Made by a program: the position numbers and the translations under genes. Source: a virus. Taken from it: 53,808 nucleotides of DNA. The first letter of the stretch is position 1, and each line of letters starts with the position of its first letter. The stretch lies in UHGV virus genome UHGV-0110229. One strand, 5' to 3'. Below are positions 6,288-42,604 of this stretch, piece after piece. The notes below the pieces were generated by a model, which was given only the letters and a program-made list of their open reading frames with translations, searched no databases and was not told where the DNA came from.

Positions 6288-7028
6288 TTAGTTACAAGTT
6301 AAAAGCTCAGTGATCCATACTTGTCCTTTAGCAGTGAATACAGCCTGCTCATATCCATCGTGAGTTACCCTCATTTCACCGTAGCCCTCATCAATAAACC
6401 ACTGACTGAATACACGGCGGCGACAGCGAAGATCGTAAACACCAACCGCCGAAAGTTTTCTGTTTAATTTTACGGCTGACATTCCCAGCGGTTTAGCTAC
6501 CTCTGAAGCCGTTCGGTGCATATCGTTTTTGACTATCGCGTCACATACAGCCGCTTTCGGAGCCAGCACCTTGTTTTCAAGCGTAAGCCGTTCATTTTCT
6601 TTCTTAACTAACAATTTTTGCTCAACCTCATCCGCCCATGCGCGGGCTGCCGCAACCGGATCAGTGAAATCCGGCAAAGCTAGTTTGTGTTGCGCCTCCT
6701 CCAACTCTTTAACGCGTTTAATTACCTTCATGCGTTGCTTAACGTCATAGCCAGTGATCAAGCACATTGTTAGCTCTTTATTTAGCAAAACCTCATCAAT
6801 GACGTTGCGACCTTTGTACTGCTTGTACTTAAACAAAAACCCTATAAATTCAAAATCCTGCATTTTTGCAGGATAAAAATCATGTTCAGTAAACCCTAAA
6901 TCTAGCAGCATGTTTTTAATATCACGCACAACCACAGAAGAATGATCCTTGTCTGTTGCTTCTGCTATTTCACGCGATGAAATCATTAATACTTCGCTAT
7001 CGACATCAAAAACCATCAATTCAGACAT
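6288..7028 (-). CDS. Rha-family regulator with KilA-C (antirepressor-type) C-terminal domain
   Basis: Start taken at MSELMVFDV (GGAGAAAA RBS upstream); N-terminus Rha-like, C-terminus KilA-C-like; ORF track gives a longer 6288..7088 version. Confidence 0.55.
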   Translation of the reverse strand: MSELMVFDVDSEVLMISSREIAEATDKDHSSVVVRDIKNMLLDLGFTEHDFYPAKMQDFEFIGFLFKYKQYKGRNVIDEVLLNKELTMCLITGYDVKQRMKVIKRVKELEEAQHKLALPDFTDPVAAARAWADEVEQKLLVKKENERLTLENKVLAPKAAVCDAIVKNDMHRTASEVAKPLGMSAVKLNRKLSAVGVYDLRCRRRVFSQWFIDEGYGEMRVTHDGYEQAVFTAKGQVWITELLTCN

Positions 7029-7160
7029 TGTATTTTCTCCGTAAAACGCGCTACAACGCAAAAATCCCACCGCGTAACCCGTTTGCACAGGTTGCAGTGT
7101 CTTATTGCGTTATAGACGCTCTCAGGTGGCTAATTTTTGATTTACAGGATGGTATGAAGG

Positions 7161-7262
7161 TTATAGATTGACCAGAAGGAACAAACCGCCGAACAAAGCG
7201 ACGTTAACGGCGATTGCAGCAGCGATGGCAAAAGCCAGGGCAAAAACGTGTTTACCGTCCAT
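7161..7262 (-). CDS. Possible small hydrophobic peptide (33 aa, single TM)
   Basis: MDGKHVFALAFAIAAAIAVNVALFGGLFLLVNL with GAGAGG RBS; sits in the gap between the replication initiator and Rha genes. Confidence 0.25.
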   Translation of the reverse strand: MDGKHVFALAFAIAAAIAVNVALFGGLFLLVNL

Positions 7263-7395
7263 TTTGAAATCCTCTCTAAAACGCTCTCTAACGAGATAAA
7301 TAGCTAAAGGTATGCAAGTGTAGCACTCAATGCTTTTTAGCTCGCTGGTGAGCTTGTTTTGCGGGTAATTTTGTGTTTTTGCGTATCGTGTTTGG

Positions 7396-8454
7396 TCAAA
7401 GAGCGCCACATCGTGTATCACGTAGCGTTTTTGGTTTAAGCAGGAAATCAAGTGTCGCAGTGAAGCCATCGCCGAAGTAAAAATCTGAAGCATTGTTTTT
7501 GAACGTTTCAAAGTAGGCGACAAAGCCGTTAATGCTTTTGTCTTTCAGGTAGTCAGTGAACGCATAAATCTTGCGTTCAAGATCCCGATCCAGTTCGGCA
7601 GGTGGCAACATGCCATCAAACGTGCTGTTAAATGCCTCCACTACGTCGGCAGCGTTTGCAGTGGCTGACAGTTTGCGCCATTTTTCAGCATCAGCCAGAT
7701 ACCCATCAAATTTAGTCACCCGGCAAATGTTTATAGGCTTAGGTGTTCCACCACGGCTACGCCATTGCGTTAAAGCCCACTCAATCACTAATGTGATCTC
7801 ATCCTCCGTATACGCTTTACGTGTTTTTGTTTCTGTCAGTAGTTCTACGAATGGCTTAGCATCACGACACTTGCATCCTGCCTTGTCGTTGTAGAAGGCC
7901 AGACAACGCAACGCCGCTTCGTTTACGCCATCCTGACTGACCGTTTTTTGTTCATTTTCGACAATACACGAAGTGTATATATCTTTTTCTCTTTCTTCTT
8001 CTTCTTCTAATTCTAATTCATGACCCTTTCCTGACCCTGTCATGACCCTATCATGACCTTTTTGTGTTTGATTGATTAGCTTTTCTAATTTTAATTGCTC
8101 CTTAGCTGTGTTTATTGCTGCCCTGTATGCGCTTTTAGAAGTCATTGATTGGTCAAGCCTTTTCAATAACTTTAAACAAGTTATGTGGCCCTGAGAACAT
8201 TCGAATAAACCAATTTCGATAAAGTATTTCATCATTTCTTCTATGCGCTTTTCAGTAGATCCTACGTTTCGCGCAATGATTCTTGCATCGTGTCGAAGGT
8301 CAAAATTAAGGTTGTGCTGATCTACGTCGTAAGTTATCAGTTCGAGGCAATACCAATAAAGACCGTAACCTTCCAGGCCATAATCTAATAAAACGTTTTG
8401 AAGTTTTTCATCGCGGTTCGCATCGCTATCATGCTTAAACCACTTCATAATCAT
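7396..8454 (-). CDS. Putative replication initiation protein (phage O/DnaD-like)
   Basis: 352 aa; N-terminus MKWFKHDSD..YGLEGYGLYWY resembles phage replisome-organiser N-terminal domains; acidic linker; sits upstream of the helicase. Confidence 0.5.
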   Translation of the reverse strand: MIMKWFKHDSDANRDEKLQNVLLDYGLEGYGLYWYCLELITYDVDQHNLNFDLRHDARIIARNVGSTEKRIEEMMKYFIEIGLFECSQGHITCLKLLKRLDQSMTSKSAYRAAINTAKEQLKLEKLINQTQKGHDRVMTGSGKGHELELEEEEEREKDIYTSCIVENEQKTVSQDGVNEAALRCLAFYNDKAGCKCRDAKPFVELLTETKTRKAYTEDEITLVIEWALTQWRSRGGTPKPINICRVTKFDGYLADAEKWRKLSATANAADVVEAFNSTFDGMLPPAELDRDLERKIYAFTDYLKDKSINGFVAYFETFKNNASDFYFGDGFTATLDFLLKPKTLRDTRCGAL

Positions 8455-8705: not shown

Positions 8706-8814
8706 CGTGTTTTCTCCTATGGTTAGAGTGAACGCGCTGGCGGGCATCCAATTAGCATTAGATAGCAGTGACTGACCGCTCAACAGATCCCGCCGTTGCG
8801 TGATATTTGTTTTT

Positions 8815-8846
8815 CGCTTCGCAGCGACACCGGATTTTTAAAGAGC
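8815..8846 (-). promoter_or_regulatory. nut-like site (boxA + boxB-type hairpin) for the leftward operon
   Basis: On the minus strand: AGCTCTTTAAAAATCCGG followed by hairpin CGCT-GCGA-AGCG; shares the 17-mer GCTCTTTAAAAATCCGG with the site at 17292. Confidence 0.5.
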
Positions 8847-8887: not shown

Positions 8888-8903
8888 CTTGCATCCTTGC
8901 AAG
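8888..8903. promoter_or_regulatory. Candidate operator palindrome in the cI/cro-side intergenic region
   Basis: CTTGCA-TCCT-TGCAAG perfect 6-bp inverted repeat; further TGCAAG/CTTGCA half-sites at 8921 and 8976. Confidence 0.35.
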
Positions 8904-9011
8904 TATGGACTTACCTTGTCTGCAAGTTTACAGAATGGCGTTAACAGGTCAAGGATTGAAAAATACATTTTGTGACTTGCATCAAACTTTTTTAGCTTAT
9001 AGGGTAGCGAC

Positions 9012-9659
9012 ATGAAAACAAAATGGTATGACTTGGCAAAACAACTCATGCGGGCGCAGGGCATGAGTCAGGATTCACTGGCTGATCTCATGGGGATAAC
9101 AAAAGGCGGCTTGTCGCACTGGCTGAACGGTCGCCGTGAGCCAAATCTTGAAGATATTGCGCGGATCATGCGGGCGCTTGGGCGTCGGCAATTCACTGTC
9201 ACACATGATGGGATGGTCATCGATGATTCTGTTTCTAACACGTTACCGGGAGCGCCACCGCGTGATTTAGGCAGTTACCCGGTTGTTGACTGGAAGGACG
9301 CAGTAAACAATATGGAAGATGCAAGGCGATCAACATTACCACACGTTACAACTAGCGTTATTTGTTCTGATGATAGTTATTGGCTGGTAGCTAAAGGCGA
9401 ATCAATGAACGCTCCGCAAGGATTGAGTATACCAGCGGGGACGATGATACTTGTCGATCCGCACGCGCCAGCTATTGACGGCAAACTAGTTATAGCCCAA
9501 CTGGAGGAAGGGCAAACTCCTACGTTTAAACAGCTTGTTATTGATGGAGGTCAAAGGCTTTTACGTTCACTCAATCCGCTGTATCCACCGATCCCTATGA
9601 ATCCAGAATCTAAAATCATAGGTGTGGTAGTGGATGCGAAGATCGTAAACCTGCCATAA
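9012..9659 (+). CDS. cI: CI-type prophage repressor (HTH + S24 LexA-like autopeptidase)
   Basis: 215 aa; N-terminal HTH (QDSLADLMGITKGGLSHWLNG); C-terminal S24 motifs (AKGESM Ser, later Lys). Confidence 0.85.
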   Translation: MKTKWYDLAKQLMRAQGMSQDSLADLMGITKGGLSHWLNGRREPNLEDIARIMRALGRRQFTVTHDGMVIDDSVSNTLPGAPPRDLGSYPVVDWKDAVNNMEDARRSTLPHVTTSVICSDDSYWLVAKGESMNAPQGLSIPAGTMILVDPHAPAIDGKLVIAQLEEGQTPTFKQLVIDGGQRLLRSLNPLYPPIPMNPESKIIGVVVDAKIVNLP

Positions 9660-9689: not shown

Positions 9690-9781
9690 GCTAAAAAACA
9701 CCAAAACGTAAACAGAAAACCATGTTTATCATTTAAATATCAAGTGCTTATAAAATTTTATAAAAAAGTATACAAAATGTG

Positions 9782-9819
9782 TTGACTCGTGTTTTTACGG
9801 GGCGTATATTTCGAGTCAA
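9782..9819 (+). promoter_or_regulatory. Sigma70 promoter (PL-like) embedded in an operator palindrome
   Basis: TTGACT-17 nt-TATATT; flanked by perfect inverted repeat TTGACTCG (9782-9789) / CGAGTCAA (9812-9819); AT-rich upstream. Confidence 0.6.
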
Positions 9820-9852: not shown

Positions 9853-9890
9853 TGCTCTTTAATAATCTGGTCAGCCGCTGGAAGTGCGGC
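9853..9890 (+). promoter_or_regulatory. nutL-like site (boxA + boxB hairpin)
   Basis: TGCTCTTTAATAA matches boxA (rrn-type TGCTCTTTAACAA); then hairpin GCCGC-TGGAAGT-GCGGC; lies between promoter and the N-like gene. Confidence 0.6.
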
Positions 9891-9946: not shown

Positions 9947-10237
9947 ATGACAGTTACAATCATGTATGGCAAATGTGACAGTAAACTGAATGCCAGGGAA
10001 CGCAGAAGAATAAAAAGAGAAAACGAAAGAAAATCATCACCTGCAATTAATAAAACAGACAATGTGGATAAAGCTATTCGCTTTGCAAACGAGGAAAGAT
10101 GCAAACCAAATAGCATTAAAGAACGTCGCAAAGGAGCAGTAAAATGGTATACGGAAAATGAAAGCGGCAACTACTACCACGCAACGCAACCACGCCATTT
10201 AGGGGAAAAACCACTTGATAAAGTCCGTTACCATTAA
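9947..10237 (+). CDS. N-type transcription antiterminator (P22 gp24-like, N-terminal arginine-rich motif)
   Basis: 96 aa; N-terminus MTVTIMYGKCDSKLNARERRRIKRE resembles P22 N as recalled (MTVITYGKS..NAKTRRHERRRK); AGGAG RBS; first gene after promoter and nut. Confidence 0.7.
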   Translation: MTVTIMYGKCDSKLNARERRRIKRENERKSSPAINKTDNVDKAIRFANEERCKPNSIKERRKGAVKWYTENESGNYYHATQPRHLGEKPLDKVRYH

Positions 10238-10267
10238 TACAAAATGTAAACAGCCGGAGGTGACGTT

Positions 10268-10390
10268 ATGGTTATTCAGGCGCTCCAATTCAAACTGGCG
10301 GTAGCGGAAATGCTTCATGATGCCGAAATGTGGAGCGCCGCGAATAAAGCCTTATATATAGTGTTAACAGCGAAGGAGATTAAAGAGTGA
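10268..10390 (+). CDS. Small ORF upstream of erf (positional analogue of P22 arf)
   Basis: 40 aa, GGAGG RBS, stop overlaps the erf GTG start (GTGA). Confidence 0.3.
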   Translation: MVIQALQFKLAVAEMLHDAEMWSAANKALYIVLTAKEIKE

Positions 10391-11028
10391 AAACAGAGTT
10401 ACACAAAAAACTGTGGACGATTCAGCAAACGCTGAACGCGCCGAAAAATCAGCGTAATAATTTCGGTGGATACAATTACAGGTCGGCGGAGGATATTTTA
10501 GAAGCGGTCAAACCACTGCTTCAAAGTATTACGCTGACTGTAAGCGATGAAATTGTCCTGATCGGCAATCGCTATTATGTGAAAGCCACTGCGACACTAA
10601 GCGACGGTGAGGATGAAATAGCGGTAACGGCTTACGCCAGGGAGGAAGAAAGCAAGAAGGGAATGGACGCAAGCCAGTTAACTGGCGCGACATCAAGTTA
10701 CGCGCGTAAATACGCTTTGAACGGGTTGTTCTGCATTGATGACGCAAAAGATCCTGATACTGATGCTTACGCGAAACAGACAAATCAACAGCCACGCCAG
10801 CAGAAAAACCCACCAAAACAACAACCACAGCAGCAGAAAGCGCCTCCAAATCCTGATGAGGTGTTAGCGCGTTTCTGTGATGCGGCAGCGAAAGCGCAGG
10901 ACGCTAACAAATTGCGCGAGATCTTCTGGAAGTGCTGGAAGCTACTGCCTAAAGATTCAGAGCAGCAACAGAAAGCCAAAGACGTTTATGACATTAGATT
11001 AAAAGAGCTTAACGGGGAGATCAGTTAA
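10387..11028 (+). CDS. erf: Erf-family single-strand annealing recombinase
   Basis: 213 aa, GTG start with AAGGAG RBS; strong resemblance to P22 Erf N-terminal domain as recalled; Q/P-rich linker. Confidence 0.8.
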   Translation: MKTELHKKLWTIQQTLNAPKNQRNNFGGYNYRSAEDILEAVKPLLQSITLTVSDEIVLIGNRYYVKATATLSDGEDEIAVTAYAREEESKKGMDASQLTGATSSYARKYALNGLFCIDDAKDPDTDAYAKQTNQQPRQQKNPPKQQPQQQKAPPNPDEVLARFCDAAAKAQDANKLREIFWKCWKLLPKDSEQQQKAKDVYDIRLKELNGEIS

Positions 11029-11444
11029 TGAGCTTAAATTTAATCACACTTGGCGGTAATATCGGGAATGATATGGAAATTCATTACACGCAAAACGGAA
11101 AGGCGATTGGTAGTTTTCCGTTAGCTGTAACGAATGGCTACGGCGATAATAAGCGGACAATGTGGGTCACTTGCCTGGTATTTGGCGAGCGTGCGGAAAA
11201 ATTAGCGCCACATATCCGCAAGGGTGGGAAAATAGTGGTAAGCGGTCGCCTGGATGTTCGGCAATATGACCGGAACGACGGCACGAAGGGGACGGCGGTA
11301 GAAGTGGCGGTTAACGAATTTGAATTCATGAACGTTAACCAACAAGGCCAGCAGCAAGGCCAGCAGCAGAAAGCGCCACCGCATCAAAATAATAACGTGA
11401 ATAATCCTCCGCCGATGGACTTCGACGATGATATTCCGTTCTGA
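11028..11444 (+). CDS. ssb: Single-stranded DNA-binding protein
   Basis: 138 aa; OB-fold-like N-terminus, Gln-rich linker, acidic C-terminal tail DFDDDIPF. Confidence 0.85.
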   Translation: MSLNLITLGGNIGNDMEIHYTQNGKAIGSFPLAVTNGYGDNKRTMWVTCLVFGERAEKLAPHIRKGGKIVVSGRLDVRQYDRNDGTKGTAVEVAVNEFEFMNVNQQGQQQGQQQKAPPHQNNNVNNPPPMDFDDDIPF

Positions 11445-11459
11445 TTCAATAGGTTAGCG

Positions 11460-11738
11460 ATGGGTGATTATTTAAAACCGCCACCGCCACCGCGAACAAA
11501 AGAGCAAGTTCTAAAAGAAGCCCGTGATCATATCGATCATGGGCTTTTTTTATGCGGAACGGCAGCGGAACGGATGGCAAAAAGATTTAGTGACCTGTAC
11601 GCAAAACAAATATGGTTCGACAACTGGCAGGCAAGTTTTTACCCACTGCAAAGAAAACCGGATATGCATTGGCCTGAATATGTCGATCCACGTATGCGCA
11701 AATATCGCGGGCGTATGGGTCAGGTTATTAACGATTAA
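11460..11738 (+). CDS. Hypothetical early protein
   Basis: 92 aa ORF after ssb; position where P22 carries anti-RecBCD genes, but no sequence evidence. Confidence 0.4.
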   Translation: MGDYLKPPPPPRTKEQVLKEARDHIDHGLFLCGTAAERMAKRFSDLYAKQIWFDNWQASFYPLQRKPDMHWPEYVDPRMRKYRGRMGQVIND

Positions 11739-11752
11739 TGAGGTATTAAATC

Positions 11753-11977
11753 ATGATCGAAGGTAAAGAAGTTGATAGGGAAATGCCTGACACAGCAGAT
11801 GACTACGTTACTTTTGATGGTGGCATGTATGAGTTCGATACGTCGGCTGGTTGGCATGATAAATGGCCTCTGCCTACTCGCAAGGAATTGAATGACCGTA
11901 AATCATTCGGCGAAGATGCCGAACGCCTGGCGAATAACAAATGGCTTGATAAATTCATTGCGGAGGGTGGCAAATGA
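11753..11977 (+). CDS. Hypothetical early protein
   Basis: 74 aa ORF. Confidence 0.4.
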   Translation: MIEGKEVDREMPDTADDYVTFDGGMYEFDTSAGWHDKWPLPTRKELNDRKSFGEDAERLANNKWLDKFIAEGGK

Positions 11978-12081
11978 AAAAGATTGCAATGTTAGCCGCA
12001 TTTGTTGCTGTGGCGGCTGTTTACCTTAGTGCGTCACTTTATATCACTGTGGCGATTGTTAAGCTGATTACTGACATGTGA
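11974..12081 (+). CDS. Small hydrophobic peptide (35 aa, single TM)
   Basis: MKKIAMLAAFVAVAAVYLSASLYITVAIVKLITDM; GGAGGG RBS; ATGA overlap with upstream gene. Confidence 0.35.
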   Translation: MKKIAMLAAFVAVAAVYLSASLYITVAIVKLITDM

Positions 12082-12088
12082 GGCTTAT

Positions 12089-12205
12089 ATGCGAGTCGAT
12101 AAAAATACTGTAAGGGCTGTTTTCTGCGTGGTCGCTTTCGTCTTCATGGTGGTAATAGCTGGCGCTACTGCGGCAATTATTAGCTATATCGGCGGGGTGA
12201 TGTGA
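12089..12205 (+). CDS. Small hydrophobic peptide (38 aa, single TM)
   Basis: MRVDKNTVRAVFCVVAFVFMVVIAGATAAIISYIGGVM; stop overlaps next start (TGATG). Confidence 0.35.
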   Translation: MRVDKNTVRAVFCVVAFVFMVVIAGATAAIISYIGGVM

Positions 12206-12477
12206 TGATTACTTGGAATGCAAAAGATGGCGATCTTGTTGTTTTACCTGAGTATCGTAGTGACCCTGGCCTGGTCGTGCTGAATAAGACATTTAATGAT
12301 CTTGAGCGCCCGATCCTGGTTAAATACCTGGACGGAACAATTATAGAGCCGCGTTTCTTTGACAAGATTGAACTGAAGGCCCGAAATGTTCGCGTTAAGC
12401 CGTTCCGGGCTTATGCTGAAAACCACTGGCGGAAATTATTCGCCGGACTGAATGGGATGTACGGCGTATGGCTATAA
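12205..12477 (+). CDS. Hypothetical early protein
   Basis: ORF (track 12202..12477); ATG at 12205. Confidence 0.35.
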   Translation: MITWNAKDGDLVVLPEYRSDPGLVVLNKTFNDLERPILVKYLDGTIIEPRFFDKIELKARNVRVKPFRAYAENHWRKLFAGLNGMYGVWL

Positions 12478-12659
12478 AATTAGTGAAAGTTAAAGATTTA
12501 AAAGGTGGTGAAAAGATCCGAACGTGGTATGGCTATAAATTTATTATAGCTGCCTTTTCTTTTGGGCCAGGTGGTCAGGTAACATTATTTGATGAGGAAG
12601 ATGACGAGGTTGGTAAATGGCATCTTGAGCAATACGTCGAGGTGTTAAATGAAAATTAA
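12468..12659 (+). CDS. Hypothetical early protein
   Basis: 63 aa ORF, coupled to neighbours. Confidence 0.3.
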   Translation: MAIKLVKVKDLKGGEKIRTWYGYKFIIAAFSFGPGGQVTLFDEEDDEVGKWHLEQYVEVLNEN

Positions 12660-12981
12660 ATTCCATAAAGGCTATGATTCAGCTACTAACAAGCTATCGC
12701 TATTTATTGAGTTCGAGCGCAGGATCGTGGTTGTTCCTTATTCTCGGCGCTTTAATGATGCGGCAGGGCGGAGACAGTTCGCGTTAGACATGTTGTTACG
12801 TGGTTGCGGCCTTATGCGCCCGCTATCTGATTTAAAACGGATAATGCCTGGATCGTTCGGTCAGATTGATGAAATAGAAATAAGCCAGGAAGAGCTAAAA
12901 CGGGAGCGTGATTTATTCCTTTCAAGTGAAGGAAACCCGTTCAATCCAGAAACTGAAATGAAATGGCATCACCCACTATAA
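12649..12981 (+). CDS. Hypothetical early protein
   Basis: 110 aa ORF. Confidence 0.35.
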   Translation: MKIKFHKGYDSATNKLSLFIEFERRIVVVPYSRRFNDAAGRRQFALDMLLRGCGLMRPLSDLKRIMPGSFGQIDEIEISQEELKRERDLFLSSEGNPFNPETEMKWHHPL

Positions 12982-12993
12982 AGGATAAATATC

Positions 12994-13614
12994 ATGAACG
13001 ACATCAAAACAGCTTATTCACTCGGCAGCGAAGGCATGTTAATCACTCGCTACACTGAAGACGCAAGTTTTCATGAAGTTGAAATTAAAGATTATCACGA
13101 AGTATTGAAAGATATGGAAGCTGGCAAGTATGACGCTGATTTGAATCTGGCGTTACAGATTGTTGATATTGTGATGGATGCGTCGATCCGCGATTATGTG
13201 TCTTTAAATGCTGAAGAAAAAACGGCCGTAGCTCGTTATGTCTTCTGCCTTACTTTCGTAAAACGAATGGAAGAAGAATTTGGACGAGTACCAGTGCCGG
13301 AAGAAATTGACCCGCTGGCGTTCGGAAGTGCTGTTATTTTCCCGTTAGATGAAAATCATATGGGTAGCGTTGCGCTGTATTCTATGCGCGGCGTAATGAA
13401 AGAAATATTCGAGGCTAAAGCGTTACAGAAGTGTATTGATGAAGGGCACAAAGAGGAAGACGTAAAGGCGATCATGCCATTGTTTTACGGCGAAATGGTT
13501 GGAAATAATATGCGTGCAAATGATTTAGGTGTACAGGCGGCTATAGCTGTGCTTAATGATGTACGGAAAAACGTGCAGCCAATGCCTGAACCTGAAAAGC
13601 GCGTACTTCATTAA
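12994..13614 (+). CDS. Hypothetical early protein
   Basis: 206 aa ORF, acidic. Confidence 0.45.
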   Translation: MNDIKTAYSLGSEGMLITRYTEDASFHEVEIKDYHEVLKDMEAGKYDADLNLALQIVDIVMDASIRDYVSLNAEEKTAVARYVFCLTFVKRMEEEFGRVPVPEEIDPLAFGSAVIFPLDENHMGSVALYSMRGVMKEIFEAKALQKCIDEGHKEEDVKAIMPLFYGEMVGNNMRANDLGVQAAIAVLNDVRKNVQPMPEPEKRVLH

Positions 13615-13713
13615 CGTTGTGGTTGCGATCGCATAAATATACGTTTTGTGTTGCGATCGCAAATCCGTTTTGTGAACTGAAATCAAAAGGTTTACGGCGC
13701 GGAGGAAAACAAG

Positions 13714-13932
13714 ATGGCCCGCGAATTAATGCTTTATTGTGTTGAGGGTGGAGTAGGTCACGATGCCTACGTCGCCGGGAAAGGCTATCCAGCCGATGAA
13801 GTGCTTTCTAATATGCACTTCCGGGAAAATGAAAGCCGGGTGTCTGTGTGGAAACGGTGCATTGATGGTATTGAAGTTGTAAGTATCGAACGGTATTTAG
13901 GCACATTTGATTACGGTGTTATTGAGGCTTAA
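13714..13932 (+). CDS. Hypothetical protein
   Basis: 72 aa ORF. Confidence 0.35.
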   Translation: MARELMLYCVEGGVGHDAYVAGKGYPADEVLSNMHFRENESRVSVWKRCIDGIEVVSIERYLGTFDYGVIEA

Positions 13933-14030
13933 TTATGGACGACACATTGTTTTATATGTGCTGTTGCTGGGGTTTTATTGCCTTATGCCTGTTTATCAGG
14001 TGGTTTATTGAATACCATATGAGGTGATTT

Positions 14031-14222
14031 ATGAAGTGCGTTGCATACTATAGGCTACCTGATAACGCTAAATTAGCTGGGATCGGTTATGCTGGCTGTT
14101 ATTACTATAACGCGGTCGGTGATATTTACAGAGTTAACATTATTGATGGTGTGCAGCATTTTCGCCTAATGACTTGCACATTAAAAGAGCTAAAACAGGC
14201 GGTAAATATGTATGAAGTTTAA
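14031..14222 (+). CDS. Hypothetical protein
   Basis: 63 aa ORF. Confidence 0.3.
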   Translation: MKCVAYYRLPDNAKLAGIGYAGCYYYNAVGDIYRVNIIDGVQHFRLMTCTLKELKQAVNMYEV

Positions 14223-14415
14223 ACAGTATAAAGAATGGAAGATTCCAGAATCAGCAACAAAGGCAGCGCCCGGAAACTTTTCGGGCGTTTATTTTTATAT
14301 GGAAGGGAAATGGTATTTCGGCAGCAGGCCGGATCACTATTATCAAGAAATATGCAAGCCTCATGTGTGGGATATTAAGGAACGCGTGCAAGGTGGTGTA
14401 ATAGACGAGGTTTAA
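14212..14415 (+). CDS. Hypothetical protein
   Basis: 67 aa ORF. Confidence 0.3.
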   Translation: MKFKQYKEWKIPESATKAAPGNFSGVYFYMEGKWYFGSRPDHYYQEICKPHVWDIKERVQGGVIDEV

Positions 14416-14416
14416 A

Positions 14417-14653
14417 ATGGTTAAGAGCTTTTTTAACTGGTTGGGGGCGTGGCTTTTGGCTACGCTTTTTGTTTTTTTGGTGTTCAGCGGCGGCATCGTC
14501 ATATTTACGCTGGCTGTGATGTTTGTTACATGGTCAGTACCTGAGTTTAATGACTTGGGATCTATTCTTACCATAGCCCGCGCTTTATTGGCTGTTAGCT
14601 CATTTATTGGTTTTTGCTGGACTGTAGCGCCTGATTGGGGTGATGAATGGTGA
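14417..14653 (+). CDS. Small membrane protein (2 predicted TM helices)
   Basis: 78 aa, two hydrophobic stretches. Confidence 0.35.
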   Translation: MVKSFFNWLGAWLLATLFVFLVFSGGIVIFTLAVMFVTWSVPEFNDLGSILTIARALLAVSSFIGFCWTVAPDWGDEW

Positions 14654-14891
14654 TCCTATGGCTTTGTTTAATATGTCAGAGCCGCAATTTAACGCCGTTA
14701 AAGCTGCCGCCCGCGCCGCGCTTTCTGCCTGCAAAGCGGAGGTAGAGAAAAACGGATACAGCGATAAAGCTACGCGGCTGATATTAGAAAAGCATTATCG
14801 CAAAGTCGCCCCGCTAATCAGCATCGAGCGTTTTGTCTGGCTGGTGGGGTATTTAAACAACAGATGGGGAACTGATCAGGATTATTTCTAA
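14640..14891 (+). CDS. Hypothetical protein
   Basis: 83 aa ORF. Confidence 0.35.
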   Translation: MMNGDPMALFNMSEPQFNAVKAAARAALSACKAEVEKNGYSDKATRLILEKHYRKVAPLISIERFVWLVGYLNNRWGTDQDYF

Positions 14892-14900
14892 GGGGGCGTA

Positions 14901-15440
14901 ATGAAGAATGACTACGGCGGAAGCCATACGCCGAAGGAAATTAAAGACCTATGGCAGACGCCAAAACCAGTTTTTAGAGGAATGGATCGCGAGTTCGAAT
15001 TTGTCGCAGATGTGGCGGCAAACAAGGCAAATGCGCTAGTTCCGCGATATATAACCGAAGAAATGGACACATTGCATTATCCGTGGGGAGCGGTGGCAAT
15101 GCCTGGTGAGTATGTATGGCTTAATCCGCCATATTCTAATCCGGGGCCATTCGTTGATAAAGCTGCGCTTGAACACAGCAGAAACCATATCGGATGCGTA
15201 ATGCTGTTGCCCGCTGATATTTCTGTTAACTGGTTTATGAACGGCGTGGGGACGGCAAACGAATGCAGATTAATCACGCGCGGGCGGCTGGCTTTTATAA
15301 ATGCTGCGACTGGTAAGCCAGTGAGCGGAAACAATAAAGGCAGCTTGTTTTTGATCTGGCATCCACGGTGCAGACATGAATGTATTTTTACACACGTAAC
15401 GCGCAAAGATCTATATGCAAGAGGTGCAGATAATGACTAG
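14901..15440 (+). CDS. Phage Dam-type DNA N6-adenine methyltransferase
   Basis: 179 aa; amino-methylase motif NPPYS; size and layout typical of small phage Dam enzymes. Confidence 0.65.
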   Translation: MKNDYGGSHTPKEIKDLWQTPKPVFRGMDREFEFVADVAANKANALVPRYITEEMDTLHYPWGAVAMPGEYVWLNPPYSNPGPFVDKAALEHSRNHIGCVMLLPADISVNWFMNGVGTANECRLITRGRLAFINAATGKPVSGNNKGSLFLIWHPRCRHECIFTHVTRKDLYARGADND

Positions 15441-15930
15441 TGCAGCAGATTTATTACGACTTGCAGCGGAAACAATTGAGCAAAGAGGGAAACAAAACGG
15501 ATACGACAGAAAACAAGAAAAATCAGCGCCAAAAATAGCCACTATATACAACGCTAAGAAGGGCGCAAATTTAACCCCACTTGATGTATGGGATCTGTTG
15601 ATTTGTCTTAAGGAGGCGCGTTTAGAGGCAATTTTGGCTAATGGTTCTGACCCTACTGATACTTTGGTTGACTTAATCAGCTACAGCGCACTAAAAGCGG
15701 AGCAAATATTAAATGATCGGGAGAATGAGCAAAAGAAAAATCAGTTCACTGCCGCCAATATTAATGATGGAATAATAAATGACGCAGCAATAACAAGCTG
15801 TAAGGGGTTGCCACCTTCAATGCTTAATCCTCAATGTGGTTGTATTTCAACTCGGCTTGATTTGAATTTCAAAAGATCTGAGGCTATTCGCGATAAGAGG
15901 TATGACCCAAATGAAAAAGGTGACAATTGA
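15433..15930 (+). CDS. Hypothetical protein adjacent to methyltransferase
   Basis: 165 aa from ATG at 15433 (GAGGTG RBS), overlapping the methylase stop. Confidence 0.4.
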   Translation: MTSAADLLRLAAETIEQRGKQNGYDRKQEKSAPKIATIYNAKKGANLTPLDVWDLLICLKEARLEAILANGSDPTDTLVDLISYSALKAEQILNDRENEQKKNQFTAANINDGIINDAAITSCKGLPPSMLNPQCGCISTRLDLNFKRSEAIRDKRYDPNEKGDN

Positions 15931-16414
15931 CAGGTTATTGGCCTGCGTTTACGTCGCCGTTTTCGTGATCATCAACCTTATTGTTAACCATTGCGGTCCG
16001 TGGGTAATTCCTATCACCACGGTAGCCGTAGTGTGTGTCAATATGATGATCCGCGACTTTCTGTTATATGACGGCGGCCTGAAATGGTCGGCTACAACAT
16101 GCGCCGCCGCTGGCGCAATCACGGTGCTGATAAATTATGACGCAGGGATGGTGGCAATCGCGTCATTCGTCGCGGTTGTTTCTGGTGCGCTTATATCTGG
16201 CGGCGTTTACCGGGTTTTACCTGGTGATTTCGATTCGAAACGCTGGCCTGCAAATATAGCGTCAGCCATTGGCGATGCGTTGATTTTCCCTACGTTATCG
16301 TTTATGGCATTCATGCCGGAAATATCAGCAATGCAATTCATCTCAAAAATGGCAGCGGTAACGGTGATCACTATCATCATGCGCCGCTATTTCACGTTTG
16401 AGGGCAAAAAATGA
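15902..16414 (+). CDS. Integral membrane protein (4-5 predicted TM helices), function unknown
   Basis: 170 aa, strongly hydrophobic throughout; lies between two methyltransferase-like genes. Confidence 0.45.
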   Translation: MTQMKKVTIDRLLACVYVAVFVIINLIVNHCGPWVIPITTVAVVCVNMMIRDFLLYDGGLKWSATTCAAAGAITVLINYDAGMVAIASFVAVVSGALISGGVYRVLPGDFDSKRWPANIASAIGDALIFPTLSFMAFMPEISAMQFISKMAAVTVITIIMRRYFTFEGKK

Positions 16415-17193
16415 GCAAGGGTAAACACTGGTTAAATAATTGGCTTAGAAGTTGGGTTGTGTGGTCGCTGTACGACGGCAGCGGGTACGCCGTTAAAGAT
16501 TGGGCGGAAGCAGGATATAAGTGCTATTGCTTCAACTATGACGGCGCAAATCACGGCGATTATGAAGGCGTTAAAATCATTCATCCGAATATTGAATACG
16601 TTAACGTGTGGATTGACAGCCATTTCCTGGTAATGTTCTCCCCTGAATTGTCTGTTTATCCAGAGCCTGACATTATCTTGGGTTTTCCTCCATGCGACGA
16701 TCTCGCCGTGTCTGGCGCTCGCTGGTTCGCTGATAAACGGAAAAAAGATCCTGACTTCCAGGTGAAGGCGGCGAATAGCGCAAAACTGGTAGAAAAACTG
16801 GCGGATATGCACAACGTTCCGTGGATGGTGGAAAATCCGGTGGGAGCACTGTCAACGCTATGGCGCAAACCTGATTTTATCTTCAACCCGTGCGCTTACG
16901 GTGGCTACCTGCCTGAAGATGACAAACATCCTGCTTTCCCTGATGTTTACCCGCCGCGAGACGCGTACACGAAGAAAACTTGTATTTGGTGCGGCAACGG
17001 ATTTAAACAGCCGCTTTTTAGACCTGTAGATCTTAACTCTGGTGATAACCCTGGGTGGGCGAAAACCGGAGGAAGGACGAAACGAACAAAGATGATCCGC
17101 TCACTAACGCCGCGTGGCTTTGCCCGTGCTGTATTCCTGGCTAACGACCTGGCCATCAATCGTGCTACGCTCAACCGCGTTTTACCGGACTGA
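16411..17193 (+). CDS. DNA C5-cytosine methyltransferase-like protein with atypical PPCD motif
   Basis: 260 aa; motif I-like LYDGSG, motif IV-like GFPPCDD (Cys kept, Q replaced), motif VI-like VENPVG; short variable region. Confidence 0.45.
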   Translation: MSKGKHWLNNWLRSWVVWSLYDGSGYAVKDWAEAGYKCYCFNYDGANHGDYEGVKIIHPNIEYVNVWIDSHFLVMFSPELSVYPEPDIILGFPPCDDLAVSGARWFADKRKKDPDFQVKAANSAKLVEKLADMHNVPWMVENPVGALSTLWRKPDFIFNPCAYGGYLPEDDKHPAFPDVYPPRDAYTKKTCIWCGNGFKQPLFRPVDLNSGDNPGWAKTGGRTKRTKMIRSLTPRGFARAVFLANDLAINRATLNRVLPD

Positions 17194-17290
17194 AATTTAC
17201 AAAATGGCGTCATTGCGTGATGTGGATCACATAATGGCGCTTTTTACCTTGTTCTGACGTATCCATTTTGTATACTTCAAACAAGCAAAA

Positions 17291-17325
17291 TGCTCTTTAA
17301 AAATCCGGCAGCGCTGAAATGCGTA
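17291..17325 (+). promoter_or_regulatory. Internal nut-like site (boxA + weak hairpin) upstream of the ninF/ninG-like genes
   Basis: TGCTCTTTAAAAATCCGG then CGC-TGAAAT-GCG; the 17-mer GCTCTTTAAAAATCCGG is identical to the leftward nut-like site. Confidence 0.4.
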
Positions 17326-17352
17326 GAAATCACCTGAAAAGGAGAGAGCATT

Positions 17353-17529
17353 ATGCCTTTTGATAATTACCAATGGCATGACGACTATGAACGAGAAAGC
17401 GTCATGCGTGCAATGTGCAATGTATGCAGCACGAAGAAAGGAGACTGCAACGAGTGCAACGAATGTTTAGATCATTGGCTAAAGGCCGGACACGCCGAAA
17501 GGCTGAACGAAACAGAGAATCAAAAATAA
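17353..17529 (+). CDS. Small Cys-rich protein (NinF-position)
   Basis: 58 aa MPFDNYQWHDDYERESVMRAMCNVCSTKKGDCNECNECLDHW..; strong RBS GGAGAGAGCA; just upstream of ninG. Confidence 0.35.
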   Translation: MPFDNYQWHDDYERESVMRAMCNVCSTKKGDCNECNECLDHWLKAGHAERLNETENQK

Positions 17530-17543
17530 TCGGGGTGGTTTTT

Positions 17544-18149
17544 ATGCAAAACCCTAAAAAACCCATAAGACGCCGTTGCAAATGCTGCGGCGTTTTTTTT
17601 GAGCCTAAATATCACAATCAAACATGGTGCAGCGATGAATGTCTGGAAGAACTGAAATTTGATCAGCTATGTCGCGATCGTGAGAAGGCTATGAAGGCTA
17701 TGGAACGGAAGAAACGCCGTGATAGCCAGCGTGAGGAACGCAACCGGAAGCGGAAGCAGTTAAATCCGCGCAGCTACTGGATTAAACAGGCGCAAAACGT
17801 TTTTAACGCTTATATACGCGAGCGTGACGCGCTATTGCCGTGCATATCATGCGGGACTTACTACGGTGAGCAATGCGGGTGGGATGCAGGCCATTACAGG
17901 ACGGTAGCCGCCGCCGGACACCTTCGCTTTAACGATGATAATTGTCACAAGCAATGCAGGCACTGCAACCAGACACTAGACGGCAACATCGGAGGGTATC
18001 GCCCTGCGCTGATTCGAAAAATTGGCCTCGCCAGGGTAGTAGCTCTGGAGAACAACAACGAAACTCACAAATGGACGATAGAAGAATGCAAGGAAATCAT
18101 AAAAGTCTATCAGGCTAAATTAGACGCCTTAAGGAGAAAGGCAGCATGA
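17544..18149 (+). CDS. ninG: NinG/Rap-family recombination protein
   Basis: Start at MQNPKKP (17544); Cys-rich N-terminus (RRCKCCGVFFEP) and conserved HYRT..G..RFN..NCHKQCRHCN pattern typical of NinG. Confidence 0.7.
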   Translation: MQNPKKPIRRRCKCCGVFFEPKYHNQTWCSDECLEELKFDQLCRDREKAMKAMERKKRRDSQREERNRKRKQLNPRSYWIKQAQNVFNAYIRERDALLPCISCGTYYGEQCGWDAGHYRTVAAAGHLRFNDDNCHKQCRHCNQTLDGNIGGYRPALIRKIGLARVVALENNNETHKWTIEECKEIIKVYQAKLDALRRKAA

Positions 18150-18559
18150 ACGAATATACATTTAGCCTACCTTACCCGCCATCGAATAACCGCTATTACC
18201 GACATTCGCGCGGTTTTCACTATATAAGCAAAGTTGGGAAGGAATATCGGGAACAAGTAAGAGACATCATCGAGCTATTAAATTTAAACATTAACCTACC
18301 TTGCCGACTGGCAATCGCCATCTATGCCGCGCCGCCGGATAACCGGATCAGAGATCTGGATAATATCCCTAAATGCCTTTTTGATAGCCTTACCTATGCC
18401 GGATTTTGGAAGGATGACGGGCAAATTGACTCAATAAAAATTGTCCGCTGCCGGAAGGTAAAAGGCGGACGCTTGTTTATTAAGATCCGCGAACGCGGCG
18501 ACCTGCTACCGGATATTGACGAATACGCGACGAATACGTGGGGGTTACAATGGAGCTAA
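18146..18559 (+). CDS. rusA: RusA Holliday junction resolvase
   Basis: 137 aa; signature LPYPPSNNRYY and D-containing catalytic region. Confidence 0.85.
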   Translation: MNEYTFSLPYPPSNNRYYRHSRGFHYISKVGKEYREQVRDIIELLNLNINLPCRLAIAIYAAPPDNRIRDLDNIPKCLFDSLTYAGFWKDDGQIDSIKIVRCRKVKGGRLFIKIRERGDLLPDIDEYATNTWGLQWS

Positions 18560-18786
18560 TAAACATTGTTGTTAAATGTACTCAATCAAGCGTCGATTTT
18601 TTCACTGAAGGTAAAAAATATTCAGGTTTTATAAAGCATGGGTGCTTTGCTTTCATTCTACAAGACGATCTTGTATCTGATTTCGACGACGCCGACGCAT
18701 GGCGATTAGTCCAGTATTTCCCGTCAAAAAATGAGTATTTTTTGCAGGGTCATTTTAAAACTAGGTTTAAGGTGGTAGAGAAATGA
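18550..18786 (+). CDS. Hypothetical protein
   Basis: ATG at 18550 overlapping the rusA stop. Confidence 0.3.
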   Translation: MELINIVVKCTQSSVDFFTEGKKYSGFIKHGCFAFILQDDLVSDFDDADAWRLVQYFPSKNEYFLQGHFKTRFKVVEK

Positions 18787-18965
18787 AAAACGAAATTAAA
18801 GATCTGCAAATAGATATTCAGCGCGATGAGCATGATTTAGAAACGGTCCGACAAATCCAGGCTTTTCATATGCGCGAATTGCTTGCATTGAAAGAGCTTG
18901 AGAGAAAGTTAGTTCAGTCTATTTCTGATCGTAAACACCTTATTGCTCGTTACGGGGGCAAGTAA
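18783..18965 (+). CDS. Hypothetical protein
   Basis: 60 aa ORF. Confidence 0.3.
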   Translation: MKNEIKDLQIDIQRDEHDLETVRQIQAFHMRELLALKELERKLVQSISDRKHLIARYGGK

Positions 18966-19687
18966 TGAATCTGGAATCTATTCTCAAATTCCACTTCCCA
19001 AAATCACCGCGTTTATCAGATGAAAGCCGGGGCACGTCCCCGGATGCACTTAATACTACGGATGCACTAACAGCAGCAGGCATGGCGCAATCGCGCGTAG
19101 AGCTTGGTTATAGCGCTTTTTTAGGGAAGATGGAACTATCACAAGCCGAAAAACATAAGGCCGTAGTTTTGCTTACAGAGCGTTTAAGGACTATGGCAAA
19201 AGATTATGAATACGTTATGGAACTGGACGAGGCCAAACGCAATGATCTTATTATTCTTGTTGCCGTTTTCGCGTTTCGGGATTATTGCCAAAGCGCCGCG
19301 ACGGAAAAAACTTGCCCGGAGTGCGGCGGATATAAATTTACGTTTGACGACTACGGAGAAAAACACCTTTGCAAAAAATGCAAGGGGCATGGGACAGTTC
19401 GCAATCATTGTAAACAATGCAAGGGCCGTGGCGAAGTACCGGATAAAGCAGCCAGTGAAGCGGCGGAAATGCCAGTGTTCAAAACGTGCCAGCATTGCGG
19501 CGGGCGCGGGTACTCGCGTTTCCCTGTAGATCTTGTACGGCAGGCGGTTAATCAGCTTGTTTTTCCGGTAAGCCGATCAACATGGTGGAAAAAGTACCGG
19601 GCTTTCTATGAAGACGCCATTGCTGAATTGTTCAAAGAAGAGGCGCTGGCAGATAACGAAATTAAAAGAGTGACGCGGGGTGAATGA
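18965..19687 (+). CDS. DnaJ-type zinc-finger protein (4x CxxCxGxG); positional candidate for late antiterminator Q
   Basis: 240 aa; four motifs CPECGG, CKKCKGHG, CKQCKGRG, CQHCGGRG; located after ninG/rusA where Q sits in lambdoid phages; function not established. Confidence 0.4.
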   Translation: MNLESILKFHFPKSPRLSDESRGTSPDALNTTDALTAAGMAQSRVELGYSAFLGKMELSQAEKHKAVVLLTERLRTMAKDYEYVMELDEAKRNDLIILVAVFAFRDYCQSAATEKTCPECGGYKFTFDDYGEKHLCKKCKGHGTVRNHCKQCKGRGEVPDKAASEAAEMPVFKTCQHCGGRGYSRFPVDLVRQAVNQLVFPVSRSTWWKKYRAFYEDAIAELFKEEALADNEIKRVTRGE

Positions 19688-19890
19688 TGGATAAGCTGGA
19701 AATAAACGATCAGTTTGCTGTTATCTTGTTCGAAGATAAAACGGGCGGTGCATGGTGTAAGAAAGTCACTGGTGCGGAAGCACGATTAATATTGGGTATG
19801 GCAAGCGCGTTAAATGATGGTGAATTGCCAGCCGTACCAGTTGAGCCAGTACATATTTACGGACGGAATAAAGATAATGAAAATAATTAA
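19684..19890 (+). CDS. Hypothetical protein
   Basis: 68 aa ORF. Confidence 0.3.
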   Translation: MMDKLEINDQFAVILFEDKTGGAWCKKVTGAEARLILGMASALNDGELPAVPVEPVHIYGRNKDNENN

Positions 19891-20224
19891 TATTGGGTGG
19901 CTGTATTGCGAAAACTGCGACGACGATGGTATGGTCGTAAAAACTGAAAAAGGTTGCGGCTTCATGCTGTATCAAGGTGATAAATTCGTTTGTCCTCGCT
20001 GCGGCGGCGGTGGTGAGATAGAAATCGTTAATGATATTGCTACAGCACATAAGCCATCTCGCATTGTCCTTGATGAAAAAATAAAAATTCATCCTGATTT
20101 ATTACAGCAAATTATCGATCACGTATCGGCAGCCGCAATCTATAGCGATAACAATTATCAGCGTGAAATGAACGTCAAACGTGCTATTAAGCAGTATTTC
20201 GAGGTTGACGACAATGAAGCCTAA
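19877..20224 (+). CDS. Hypothetical zinc-ribbon protein
   Basis: ATG 19877; CENC..CPRCGG motifs. Confidence 0.35.
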   Translation: MKIINIGWLYCENCDDDGMVVKTEKGCGFMLYQGDKFVCPRCGGGGEIEIVNDIATAHKPSRIVLDEKIKIHPDLLQQIIDHVSAAAIYSDNNYQREMNVKRAIKQYFEVDDNEA

Positions 20225-20486
20225 ATTAAAGGAACATCTATTTGCAAAACTGGTTAACGAATTAACGGAAACGGCACACCATTACGCTGGAACACAACAG
20301 CTACGCGGACGGTTGTCTTCAGTTGTCAACCGTTACATTGATGCAGGATGTCACCGCAAAGGTGAAATGACTATGGACAAGGCCATCAAGCGCCGTTCGG
20401 CTGAATGGTCAGTGAGTAACACCGGATTAACCGGATACATTGAAGGCTATAACGACTGTTTACAGGATCATAGCAATGAAAAGTAA
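20214..20486 (+). CDS. Hypothetical protein
   Basis: ATG 20214 within track ORF 20181..20486. Confidence 0.3.
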   Translation: MKPKLKEHLFAKLVNELTETAHHYAGTQQLRGRLSSVVNRYIDAGCHRKGEMTMDKAIKRRSAEWSVSNTGLTGYIEGYNDCLQDHSNEK

Positions 20487-20694
20487 CCGCAAGCGCCTTG
20501 TAAGGGCATATGACAAAGCATTAAAGGCTTTTGATGATCTGCGAAGCAATAAGCGCCAGCGCCGCAAATGGGCGCGCATGCTTGTTCATGAATGGCATTA
20601 TCCTGATGCTGCCTTGATAGAAGGTGCACCGCCATTTACACAGGAACAAGCCGACGAAGTAGCTAACGATAACGTTTATTATATGATGTGGTGA
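20476..20694 (+). CDS. Hypothetical protein
   Basis: ATG 20476 within track ORF 20440..20694. Confidence 0.3.
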   Translation: MKSNRKRLVRAYDKALKAFDDLRSNKRQRRKWARMLVHEWHYPDAALIEGAPPFTQEQADEVANDNVYYMMW

Positions 20695-20698
20695 TAAT

Positions 20699-21064
20699 AT
20701 GCAAATAATCATTGATTATCTTTGTCATGCTGCAAATACGCTTTTTGGTTTTTATCAACAACCATTCCTCAAAGAATGGGACGAAATGCTGAATGACATC
20801 ATTGATAAAGGGTTAATAATGGAGGTTGACGATCTCACAATCAAATTTAATTACGATGGTAAAGAATATCTAATTTGGGTTGGTAATAGATGGTATTCAT
20901 ACGGTCATATTTATTCAATTGGTGGTAAGTTCATTAAAAGAAACCAGGAATTTAGGCCACGCTTCCGCACAATGCGCCGCCTGCATGACCTGCATATGAA
21001 GATATTTGAAGATCAGGAAGAGCGCGAACTATTCAAGATCTACGGGGATAAATCATGGAATTAA
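20699..21064 (+). CDS. Hypothetical protein
   Basis: 121 aa ORF. Confidence 0.35.
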   Translation: MQIIIDYLCHAANTLFGFYQQPFLKEWDEMLNDIIDKGLIMEVDDLTIKFNYDGKEYLIWVGNRWYSYGHIYSIGGKFIKRNQEFRPRFRTMRRLHDLHMKIFEDQEERELFKIYGDKSWN

Positions 21065-21285
21065 AAATCTGGCAGGCTATCGACGTAGTTGATAATGCGT
21101 TATCTATGTTCGCCACCGATGGGAAACGCGTAGCAATCACTACATGGACGCGCAACTATGATGATATTTCTTTTCGTCGCAGAACGGCGGAGTGGTTTTT
21201 CTCTGAAGGCGGCTACACGATGAACATCGCACAGCTTGCCAGAATGAAAGATGAAAAGCTGGTGGACAGCTACACAACTGCGTAA
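21055..21285 (+). CDS. Hypothetical protein
   Basis: 76 aa ORF. Confidence 0.3.
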   Translation: MELKIWQAIDVVDNALSMFATDGKRVAITTWTRNYDDISFRRRTAEWFFSEGGYTMNIAQLARMKDEKLVDSYTTA

Positions 21286-21295
21286 CGGGGTAAAT

Positions 21296-21529
21296 ATGCG
21301 TATCTATGAACACAAGCGGGATAAAACCCGCTTTTTTGTTCGTGCTGGCGTGGCGTACCAGTATCACGAATGCGGTTACATTGAGGCGCTTGCTTACGAT
21401 CTGGACTTCGAGCAAGAAAAGGAATGGTTCGATTTTAAAATTTACCGTAAGCGCAAACCAACTCGCGACGAGCGCCACGCTATCCGTGAATTTTTAATCA
21501 GCATTGAACGTTGGGAGACAGAAGAGTGA
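21296..21529 (+). CDS. Hypothetical protein
   Basis: ATG 21296 (MRIYEHK) within track ORF 21251..21529. Confidence 0.3.
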   Translation: MRIYEHKRDKTRFFVRAGVAYQYHECGYIEALAYDLDFEQEKEWFDFKIYRKRKPTRDERHAIREFLISIERWETEE

Positions 21530-22220: not shown

Positions 22221-22330
22221 TGGTATTGCTTTCACGCAATAAATATAAAACGTGATCTACCTCGCAAAATATACGAAATGGCATTGTTTCGGCAGTGCCA
22301 TTTTGTTATATATAAGCCACCGAAAGACGG

Positions 22331-37594: not shown

Positions 37595-37751
37595 TTTCTT
37601 ATCCTCTTTTGCTTCCTCCGGTTAATCCGGCCTTTTAAGTCCCTTCGCTCTATCCCTTTTCTTTATCTTCTTTATACAAAATGTACTCGTTGAAGTGAAG
37701 CCATTTTGTATAAAATAGAGACGTGGATCACATTTCGTATGAGGTTAAATC

Positions 37752-41749: not shown

Positions 41750-41998
41750 CTATAAGTTATCACGCAGATAATTAACGCCCTTATCAGTGACGAATGAATG
41801 GTTAACCTGGTTTTCATCCGTCATGATGATGAATAACTTTTCCTGTAGGTATTTCGCTTTTGGGTACAGTGTTAAACAGACTTGATACAGTATCCCGCGC
41901 TCAATCAGCAAATCAATAAATTCGTGTTCATGATAACCGATGAGGCGGGCGGCCTGTTTCAACGTGTACACATAATCGCCGTGATTGCGCCGCCCCAT
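41750..41998 (-). CDS. Moron C gene 3, 82 aa protein with possible HTH
   Basis: Segment TLKQAARLIGYHEHEFIDLLIERG resembles an HTH. Confidence 0.4.
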   Translation of the reverse strand: MGRRNHGDYVYTLKQAARLIGYHEHEFIDLLIERGILYQVCLTLYPKAKYLQEKLFIIMTDENQVNHSFVTDKGVNYLRDNL

Positions 41999-42007
41999 GT
42001 TGCCGCC

Positions 42008-42358: not shown

Positions 42359-42373
42359 TTTTTGTTATAACCC

Positions 42374-42559: not shown

Positions 42560-42575
42560 GCTTCCTTTTGAGTAC

Positions 42576-42604
42576 AATATACATATTGTAAAAAACGCGA
42601 TCAA
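42576..42604 (-). promoter_or_regulatory. Sigma70-like promoter for moron C (reverse strand)
   Basis: Minus strand TTGATC-17 nt-TATATT; adjacent direct repeat TGATTTAG x2 at about 42616-42633. Confidence 0.45.

Follow-up and report, generated by a model that had tools for sequence, protein, structure and literature searches.

The intergenic site that follows the cytosine methyltransferase gene of UHGV-0110229 is, as judged by orthology, nutR2, the second rightward nut site of mEp021-like phages, which has already been published; what is re-found here is the third nut site of the mEpimmI phages and not a new kind of element. We consider it highly probable that Gp17 and Nus factors load RNA polymerase at this site and that terminators are passed before the nin and Q genes. 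This reading is based on sequence anatomy, conservation, covariation, genomic context, and orthology, and Gp17 dependence has been reported by others for mEp021. We infer the contacts with Nus factors, which terminators are bypassed, and the logic of reloading at nutR2.

The window, i.e., the whole 53,808-nt stretch of DNA that was analyzed, is by its sequence matches an mEp021-like (mEpimmI) E. coli phage. Positions 16400-18200 match Escherichia phages mEp554, mEp010, mEp013, mEp044, mEp515, mEp021, and MagusPhagus at 90-94%, and the immunity region matches the same seven phages. A cI-like repressor gene with HTH_3 and Peptidase_S24 domains (9012-9659) runs rightward and has a terminator at its end. 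To its left, a leftward promoter candidate (8952-8925) precedes the nut-like site at 8830-8846, an HTH gene, and the replication genes. Rightward, the window's top-scoring promoter match (9782-9810) is followed by the site at 9854 and by the N-like antiterminator gene (9947-10237, plus strand), whose 96-aa product carries the arginine-rich motif NARERRRIKRENERK, is identical to mEp021 Gp17 at 94/96 positions, and gave a subthreshold match to Pfam N_peptide (E value of 0.0085). Beyond this gene lie erf, ssb, many small genes, a Dam methylase gene, and the cytosine methyltransferase gene (16411-17193), called Dcm-like in relatives. As described in the first-pass annotation, nutR2 is flanked by this methylase-like gene upstream and by ninF-like (17353-17529) and ninG (17544-18149; Pfam NinG, 8e-68) genes downstream. 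These are followed by rusA, whose product matches Pfam RusA, and by a Q-type late antiterminator gene (18965-19687; Pfam Antiterm PF03589). Based on Pfam matches and the mEp021 annotation, the block that nutR2 would serve (17353-19687) thus comprises the ninF-like gene, ninG, rusA, small ORFs, and the Q-type gene. All genes from 9947 to 21300 lie on the plus strand, the same strand as nutR2. No Rfam family was found across the whole window at gathering thresholds.

Two further observations concern other parts of the window. CTTGCA / TGCAAG half-sites (CTTGCATCCTTGCAAG, CTTGTCTGCAAG, and ACTTGCATC, at 8890-8927 and 8976-8985) occupy the interval between the leftward promoter and the divergent repressor promoter, are kept in mEp021, and are probable repressor operators; none was evident at the rightward promoter, which is flanked by TTGACTCG...CGAGTCAA instead. 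Within a 1813-aa ORF (44583-50024), the 12-mer AACGCTGGCGTC occurs at 47736, 47844, 48276, and 48738, and three of the copies are spaced at multiples of 54 nt (108 and 432 nt), a pattern suggestive of a tail protein with repeated domains.

Anatomy of the nut sites and their resemblance to host rrn spacers

The 17-mer GCTCTTTAAAAATCCGG occurs exactly at 17292-17308 on the plus strand and at 8830-8846 on the minus strand, an identity that the first-pass annotation had recorded correctly, and a third copy, GCTCTTTAATAATCTGG, differs at two positions and is found at 9854-9870 on the plus strand. When up to three mismatches were allowed, these 3 matches compared with 0.17 expected, and 3 matches were reached in 0/100 shuffles. 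At nutR2, the 17-mer consists of boxA GCTCTTTAA (17292-17300) and the conserved 3' extension AAATCCGG. Aligned with the lambda nutL/nutR and rrn boxA regions, TGCTCTTTAAAAA at 17291-17303 agrees with the boxA pattern (CGCTCTTA / TGCTCTTTAACAA). The leftward site, nutL (8814-8846, minus strand), combines the 17-mer (8846-8830) with the boxB UCGCU-GCGA-AGCGA (8827-8814) downstream of promoter candidate 8952-8925, and nutR1 (9854-9890, plus strand) combines GCTCTTTAATAATCTGG with the boxB GCCGC-UGGAAGU-GCGGC downstream of the top-ranked promoter at 9782-9810. All three sites share a layout of boxA GCTCTTTAA, a conserved extension, and a short GC stem 10 to 12 nt later, and the order of boxA and boxB is that of lambda.

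The weak hairpin previously noticed after the 17-mer (CGC-TGAAAT-GCG) is present at 17311-17324 on the plus strand, where folding and covariation define a boxB with a GCGC/GCGU stem, a U.U closure, and a GAAA loop. The sequence GCGC-U-GAAA-U-GCGU starts 10 nt past GCTCTTTAA and forms a 4-pair stem that includes a G.U pair (17311-17314/17321-17324) and a U-GAAA-U loop. Its folding energy was indistinguishable from that of shuffled sequences (z = -0.29), as expected for a boxB this small. Across the three sites, the stem is closed by U.U or U-A and the loop is of the GNRA type (GAAA at nutR2, GCGA at nutL, and GGAAG at nutR1). The loop and the three inner pairs do not vary among 33 distinct relatives; at the outer pair, 26 of these have G.U, 4 have A-U, and 3 have C-G, the last of which requires a change on both sides. 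The outer pair thus covaries, this being a single pair among closely related sequences. One of the relatives with a compensatory C-G pair (L063) also carries a 163-aa HNH-type ORF (6976-7467) inserted between ninG and rusA, as well as a divergent ninF allele.

Counterparts of the 17-mer outside these phages are found in enterobacterial rRNA operons. When the pattern GCTCTTTAAHAATCYGG was scanned against species-representative genomes, it returned mostly Enterobacterales rRNA spacers and no distant phage homologs, and a boxA-N11-boxB pattern of the nutR2 type had no match in one-genome-per-species representatives. The E. coli sequence GCTCTTTAAAAATCTGG, located between the spacer tRNA and the 23S rRNA, agrees with the phage 17-mer at 16/17 bases, and the exact 17-mer (17/17) occurs in the rrn spacers of Buttiauxella, Cedecea, and Dryocola. 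Judging from these comparisons, constraint towards a strong NusB/NusE site, and not recent duplication, explains the stretch that nutL and nutR2 have in common: the two 17-mers would be identical despite their differing flanks and boxB hairpins because they are constrained towards the host rrn boxA context.

Conservation of the nutR2 cassette and the predicted terminators around it

The 159-nt intergenic cassette that contains nutR2 is 98.1% identical to that of mEp021, relative to 89.6% for the surrounding 1.8 kb. In both phages the site lies after the Dcm-like methylase gene and before ninF/ninG, boxA and boxB are alike, the nutL, nutR1, and nutR2 layout is the same, and Gp17 is 98% identical. 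The differences are at the strain level only, e.g., a distance between nutR1 and nutR2 of 7,438 nt in the window versus 7,947 nt in the mEp021 record. The third, internal nut site proposed in the first-pass annotation can thus be identified as the ortholog of mEp021 nutR2, with which conservation and covariation agree. According to published work that cites Valencia-Toxqui et al. 2023, Gp17 acts on nutL, nutR1, and nutR2 in mEp021, nutR2 is located after the cytosine methyltransferase gene, and the three sites mediate Gp17- and Nus-dependent read-through of downstream terminators (PMC11893012). Three nut sites are the published hallmark of this non-lambdoid (mEpimmI) group, which bears out the earlier remark that the arrangement is not standard lambda logic.

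The cassette was found in 7/50,697 phage records and in 35/5,426 complete E. coli genomes, in a single copy each time; no homologs outside the mEpimmI group were found among the 50,697 phage records. It is 92-99% identical in the seven phage records, and across some 45 phage and prophage genomes the coding sequence on either side is less well conserved. Most of the 33 distinct relatives were retrieved through the 17-mer, so its invariance among them arises by construction. With an anchor outside the 17-mer, however, 36 homologous cassettes were obtained, 35 of which contain the exact 17-mer and one of which has two changes in the extension, and the 17-mer is also intact in the four most divergent E. 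coli prophage copies identified by BLAST. The search of related phages that had been suggested for this element thus found it conserved.

Some variation was observed near nutR1 in these phages. An extra segment of ~240 nt lies between the rightward promoter and nutR1 in mEp021 and holds a degenerate nut-like string, CACTTTAAAAAATCAGG (L079 2503-2520; about 12002-12019 in the mEp021 record), and the nutR1 boxA is GCTCATTAACAA in mEp021 and GCTCTTTAACAA or GCTCTTTAATAA in other relatives.

Upstream of nutR2, a 15-bp hairpin at 17206-17241 on the plus strand (dG of -20.2 kcal/mol, z = -4.4) corresponds to the predicted terminator t4, which is annotated as TERM_4 just 5' of the nut site in the mEp021 record. 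In 33 relatives, 99% of the cells in its stem are paired and only wobble-preserving changes occur, with a hypervariable loop. Since only three U residues of the tail are conserved (the mEp021 tail is UAUUC), t4 would be a weak terminator at best in many relatives. The apex of the hairpin is the palindrome CGTGAT-N4-ATCACA (17216-17231), which includes GTGGATCACA; this element was previously said to recur at 37723, and both copies are present (17222-17231 and 37723-37732).

Downstream, a hairpin followed by U8 is located within the first 57 nt of ninG (17571-17600, plus strand; dG of -17.2 kcal/mol, z = -3.5), 265 nt from the nutR2 boxA. In 24 distinct relatives it shows no synonymous-site variation outside the loop, while the codons next to it vary freely at such sites. 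It is annotated as ARNold terminator T7 in mEp554 and is unannotated over the same stretch of the mEp021 record. This element is likely the first intrinsic terminator that a polymerase loaded at nutR2 must pass. A second terminator-like site, upstream of the lysis genes (21314-21333, plus strand), is the positional equivalent of mEp021 TERM_5 (t5). nutR2 lies on the transcribed strand upstream of both.

These features are consistent with the following mechanism. The transcribed boxA GCUCUUUAA, which has the rrn-type consensus, would recruit host NusB/NusE, and the boxB GCGC-U-GAAA-U-GCGU would bind the arginine-rich motif of Gp17. Together with NusA and NusG, these contacts would convert the passing RNA polymerase to a termination-resistant form able to read through the ninG hairpin-U8 and later t5, such that expression of ninG, rusA, and the Q-type late regulator would require Gp17. 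The early rightward promoter 7.4 kb upstream is the most likely source of the polymerases that use nutR2; these would be modified first at nutR1 and loaded again at nutR2, as in rrn operons at the spacer boxA. The model published for mEp021, as set out in the abstract of Valencia-Toxqui et al. 2023 (Arch Virol 168:92), is said to be read-through from nutR1, with polymerase reportedly reading through to nutR2 "more than 7.9 kbp" past nutR1. A polymerase modified at nutR1 should not need nutR2 if the modification persists as in lambda, and the rationale for reloading is one that we infer by analogy.

A promoter-like island upstream of nutR2

The first-pass annotation had argued that a nut site in the middle of an operon implies an internal promoter. 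This does not follow. rrn operons carry a boxA in the leader and another in the 16S-23S spacer and modify polymerase at both without a new promoter (PMC6614797), so that a mid-operon nut-like site does not by itself imply one.

A position weight matrix (PWM) identified a putative promoter-like element, TTGTTC-16 nt-TATACT, at 17249-17276 on the plus strand, with a predicted start near 17283. This candidate ranks 66 over 107,564 positions, and the same matrix places the candidates for the expected early promoters pR1, pL, and pRM at ranks 1, 4, and 11. A simple sigma-70 consensus scan of the window did not report it, its -35 matching at only 3/6 positions, and its score had shuffle P values of 0.06 within a 50-nt segment and 0.18 within the whole intergenic region when composition was preserved. 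Because shuffled sequences reach the score this often, the sigma-70 match by itself proves nothing; the pattern of conservation, in contrast, is suggestive. Among the 33 distinct relatives, neither TTGT nor the 22-nt block around the putative -10, with GTATCCATTTTGTATACTTCAA, changes, while the patches on either side vary, and the same blocks are kept in the most divergent prophage copies. The spacer is 15 nt in one relative. The element has the same -35/-10 geometry as the pL candidate and is identical to it at 21/32 positions; this similarity is not significant as an alignment, and paralogy of the segment with pL was rejected on that basis.

Given these observations, nutR2 might mainly serve transcripts from an internal sigma-70 promoter starting near 17283, a possibility that we regard as doubtful yet worth setting out. 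An active promoter at 17249-17276, which we put forward only tentatively, would add to the published read-through model and not replace it. The order of terminator, promoter, and nut site would then be the same as at nutR1, the poorly conserved U tract of t4 and the invariance of the TTGT and -10 blocks next to varying patches and a varying hairpin loop would fit, and the second nut site would have a clear purpose. Against it stand the insignificant sigma-70 score with its poor -35, the insignificant similarity to pL, and the 15-nt spacer, and the literature examined on mEp021-like phages does not mention such a promoter.

The palindrome at the apex of t4 also resembles a CRP site. In the window, CGTGA-N6-TCACA agrees with the CRP pattern TGTGA-N6-TCACA at 9/10 positions, and in 13/33 relatives the agreement is 10/10; relative to the predicted start, its center would fall between -59.5 and -61.5, close to the position of a class I site (approximately -61.5). 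A second copy of CGTGAT-N4-ATCACA, at 42624-42639, precedes the rank-2 promoter (42604-42576, minus strand) and lies ~62 bp upstream of its predicted start. However, a prophage variant (TTACA) retains G.U pairing in the stem and breaks the half-site, which favors an RNA hairpin. The rank-2 promoter itself faces three small minus-strand ORFs (41750-42616) that lie among plus-strand tail genes and are likely a moron cluster.

The proposed promoter had been called motif rich, on the strength of an inverted repeat and the GTGGATCACA element. The motifs are indeed present, but they belong mostly to the conserved t4 hairpin and to a repeated motif family. Both arms of the inverted repeat were located as described: the left arm, TACAAAATGG, at 17198-17207 is a member of this family, and the right arm, CCATTTTGTA, at 17263-17272 overlaps the putative -10 region. 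The possibility that the repeat forms a long RNA stem around t4 is not supported by the minimum free energy and consensus folds, which pair the right arm with ACAAAATG beside boxA. A small intergenic ORF (e.g., 17204-17257, or 17227-17379 on the minus strand) was rejected, given its hypervariable loop and spacer patches and the 1-nt indels in three relatives. At two or fewer mismatches, the motif family (TATACAAAATGG / CCATTTTGTATA) is matched 23 times, relative to 6.9 expected, mainly in intergenic regions (17196-17207, 17263-17274, 22270-22309, 37673-37712, 42544-42555, 50369-50471, 8927-8938, and 9769-9780). Inverted pairs spaced 28 bp center to center precede the genes at 22331 and 37752. 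One single copy is beside the -35 of the early rightward promoter, and another overlaps the -10 of its leftward counterpart. A half copy, ACAAAATG, adjoins the nutR2 boxA in most relatives, the window having GCAAAATG at 17285-17292. The motif cassette at 22270-22310 had no homologs in the loci that were compared.

It is conceivable, if rather unlikely, that nutR2 is fed by its own promoter, one of a family of TATACAAAATGG-marked cassettes and possibly aided by CRP at the t4 apex. If this were true, the nin-Q block of mEpimmI phages would be an independently initiated, Gp17-gated unit, perhaps responsive to cAMP, and not the distal end of one early operon.

Proposed loading at nutR2 compared with known systems

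Reloading of Gp17-modified polymerase at nutR2 remains our preferred reading, and comparisons with other antitermination systems bear on it. The phage lambda nutL and nutR sites are built like those of the window, from a boxA, a spacer, and a 3' boxB hairpin whose loop is purine rich and GNRA-like. Also shared are a dependence on Nus factors, a position ahead of early-operon terminators, and an N protein that carries an arginine-rich motif. In contrast, lambda has two nut sites, each shortly past an early promoter, whereas the window has a third site, 7.4 kb into its rightward operon. The lambda boxA is CGCTCTTA, whereas that of the window has the rrn consensus, and the lambda boxB, with its 5-bp stem and pentaloop, is unlike that of nutR2. 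Also unlike lambda, the window has its N-like gene in the rightward operon and its replication genes in the leftward one. The put sites of phage HK022 are, like nut sites, cis-acting RNA elements of early operons that make polymerase terminator resistant. put RNA acts with neither boxA nor an N protein and folds into two larger stem-loops, and no such structures were found at nutR2 in the folds.

The E. coli rrn spacer resembles nutR2 in being a second, mid-operon Nus loading site without a new promoter (PMC6614797), and its GCTCTTTAAAAATCTGG sequence is one base off the phage 17-mer. This resemblance, together with the 17/17 match in Buttiauxella, Cedecea, and Dryocola and the thermodynamic weakness of the nutR2 hairpin, would be expected if nutR2 were a Nus-only, rrn-type boxA at which NusB/E (with SuhB and S4) suppress Rho-dependent termination without Gp17 and the hairpin is incidental. 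We consider this improbable. The loop and inner stem of the hairpin are invariant and its outer pair covaries, and a GNRA-type hairpin lies equally far 3' of boxA at all three sites, as in lambda. In rrn operons, boxB is 5' of boxA and dispensable, the context is that of rRNA, no N-like protein takes part, and the complex counters Rho-dependent termination; nutR2, in contrast, is in a phage, has a 3' boxB and a phage N-like protein, and is followed by nearest downstream terminators that are intrinsic. Moreover, Gp17 is reported to act on nutR2 (PMC11893012).

The remaining explanation, that a recent local duplication of nutL left nutR2 behind as a nonfunctional relic, as the first-pass annotation had allowed in view of their identical 17-mer, is extremely improbable, because the similarity ends at the nut site (32/41 positions) with differing flanks, boxB stem, and loop, the cassette is better conserved than its coding flanks in the phage and prophage genomes, and constraint towards the host rrn boxA context would explain the shared 17-mer.

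Taken together, these analyses place a known nut site in this phage genome and add three details to it: a nut boxA region that copies the host rrn spacer boxA context, a synonymous-site-constrained terminator at the start of ninG, and a conserved promoter-like island between the t4 hairpin and nutR2. The boxA context, the ninG terminator, and the promoter-like island could guide experiments on why mEpimmI phages need a second rightward site.
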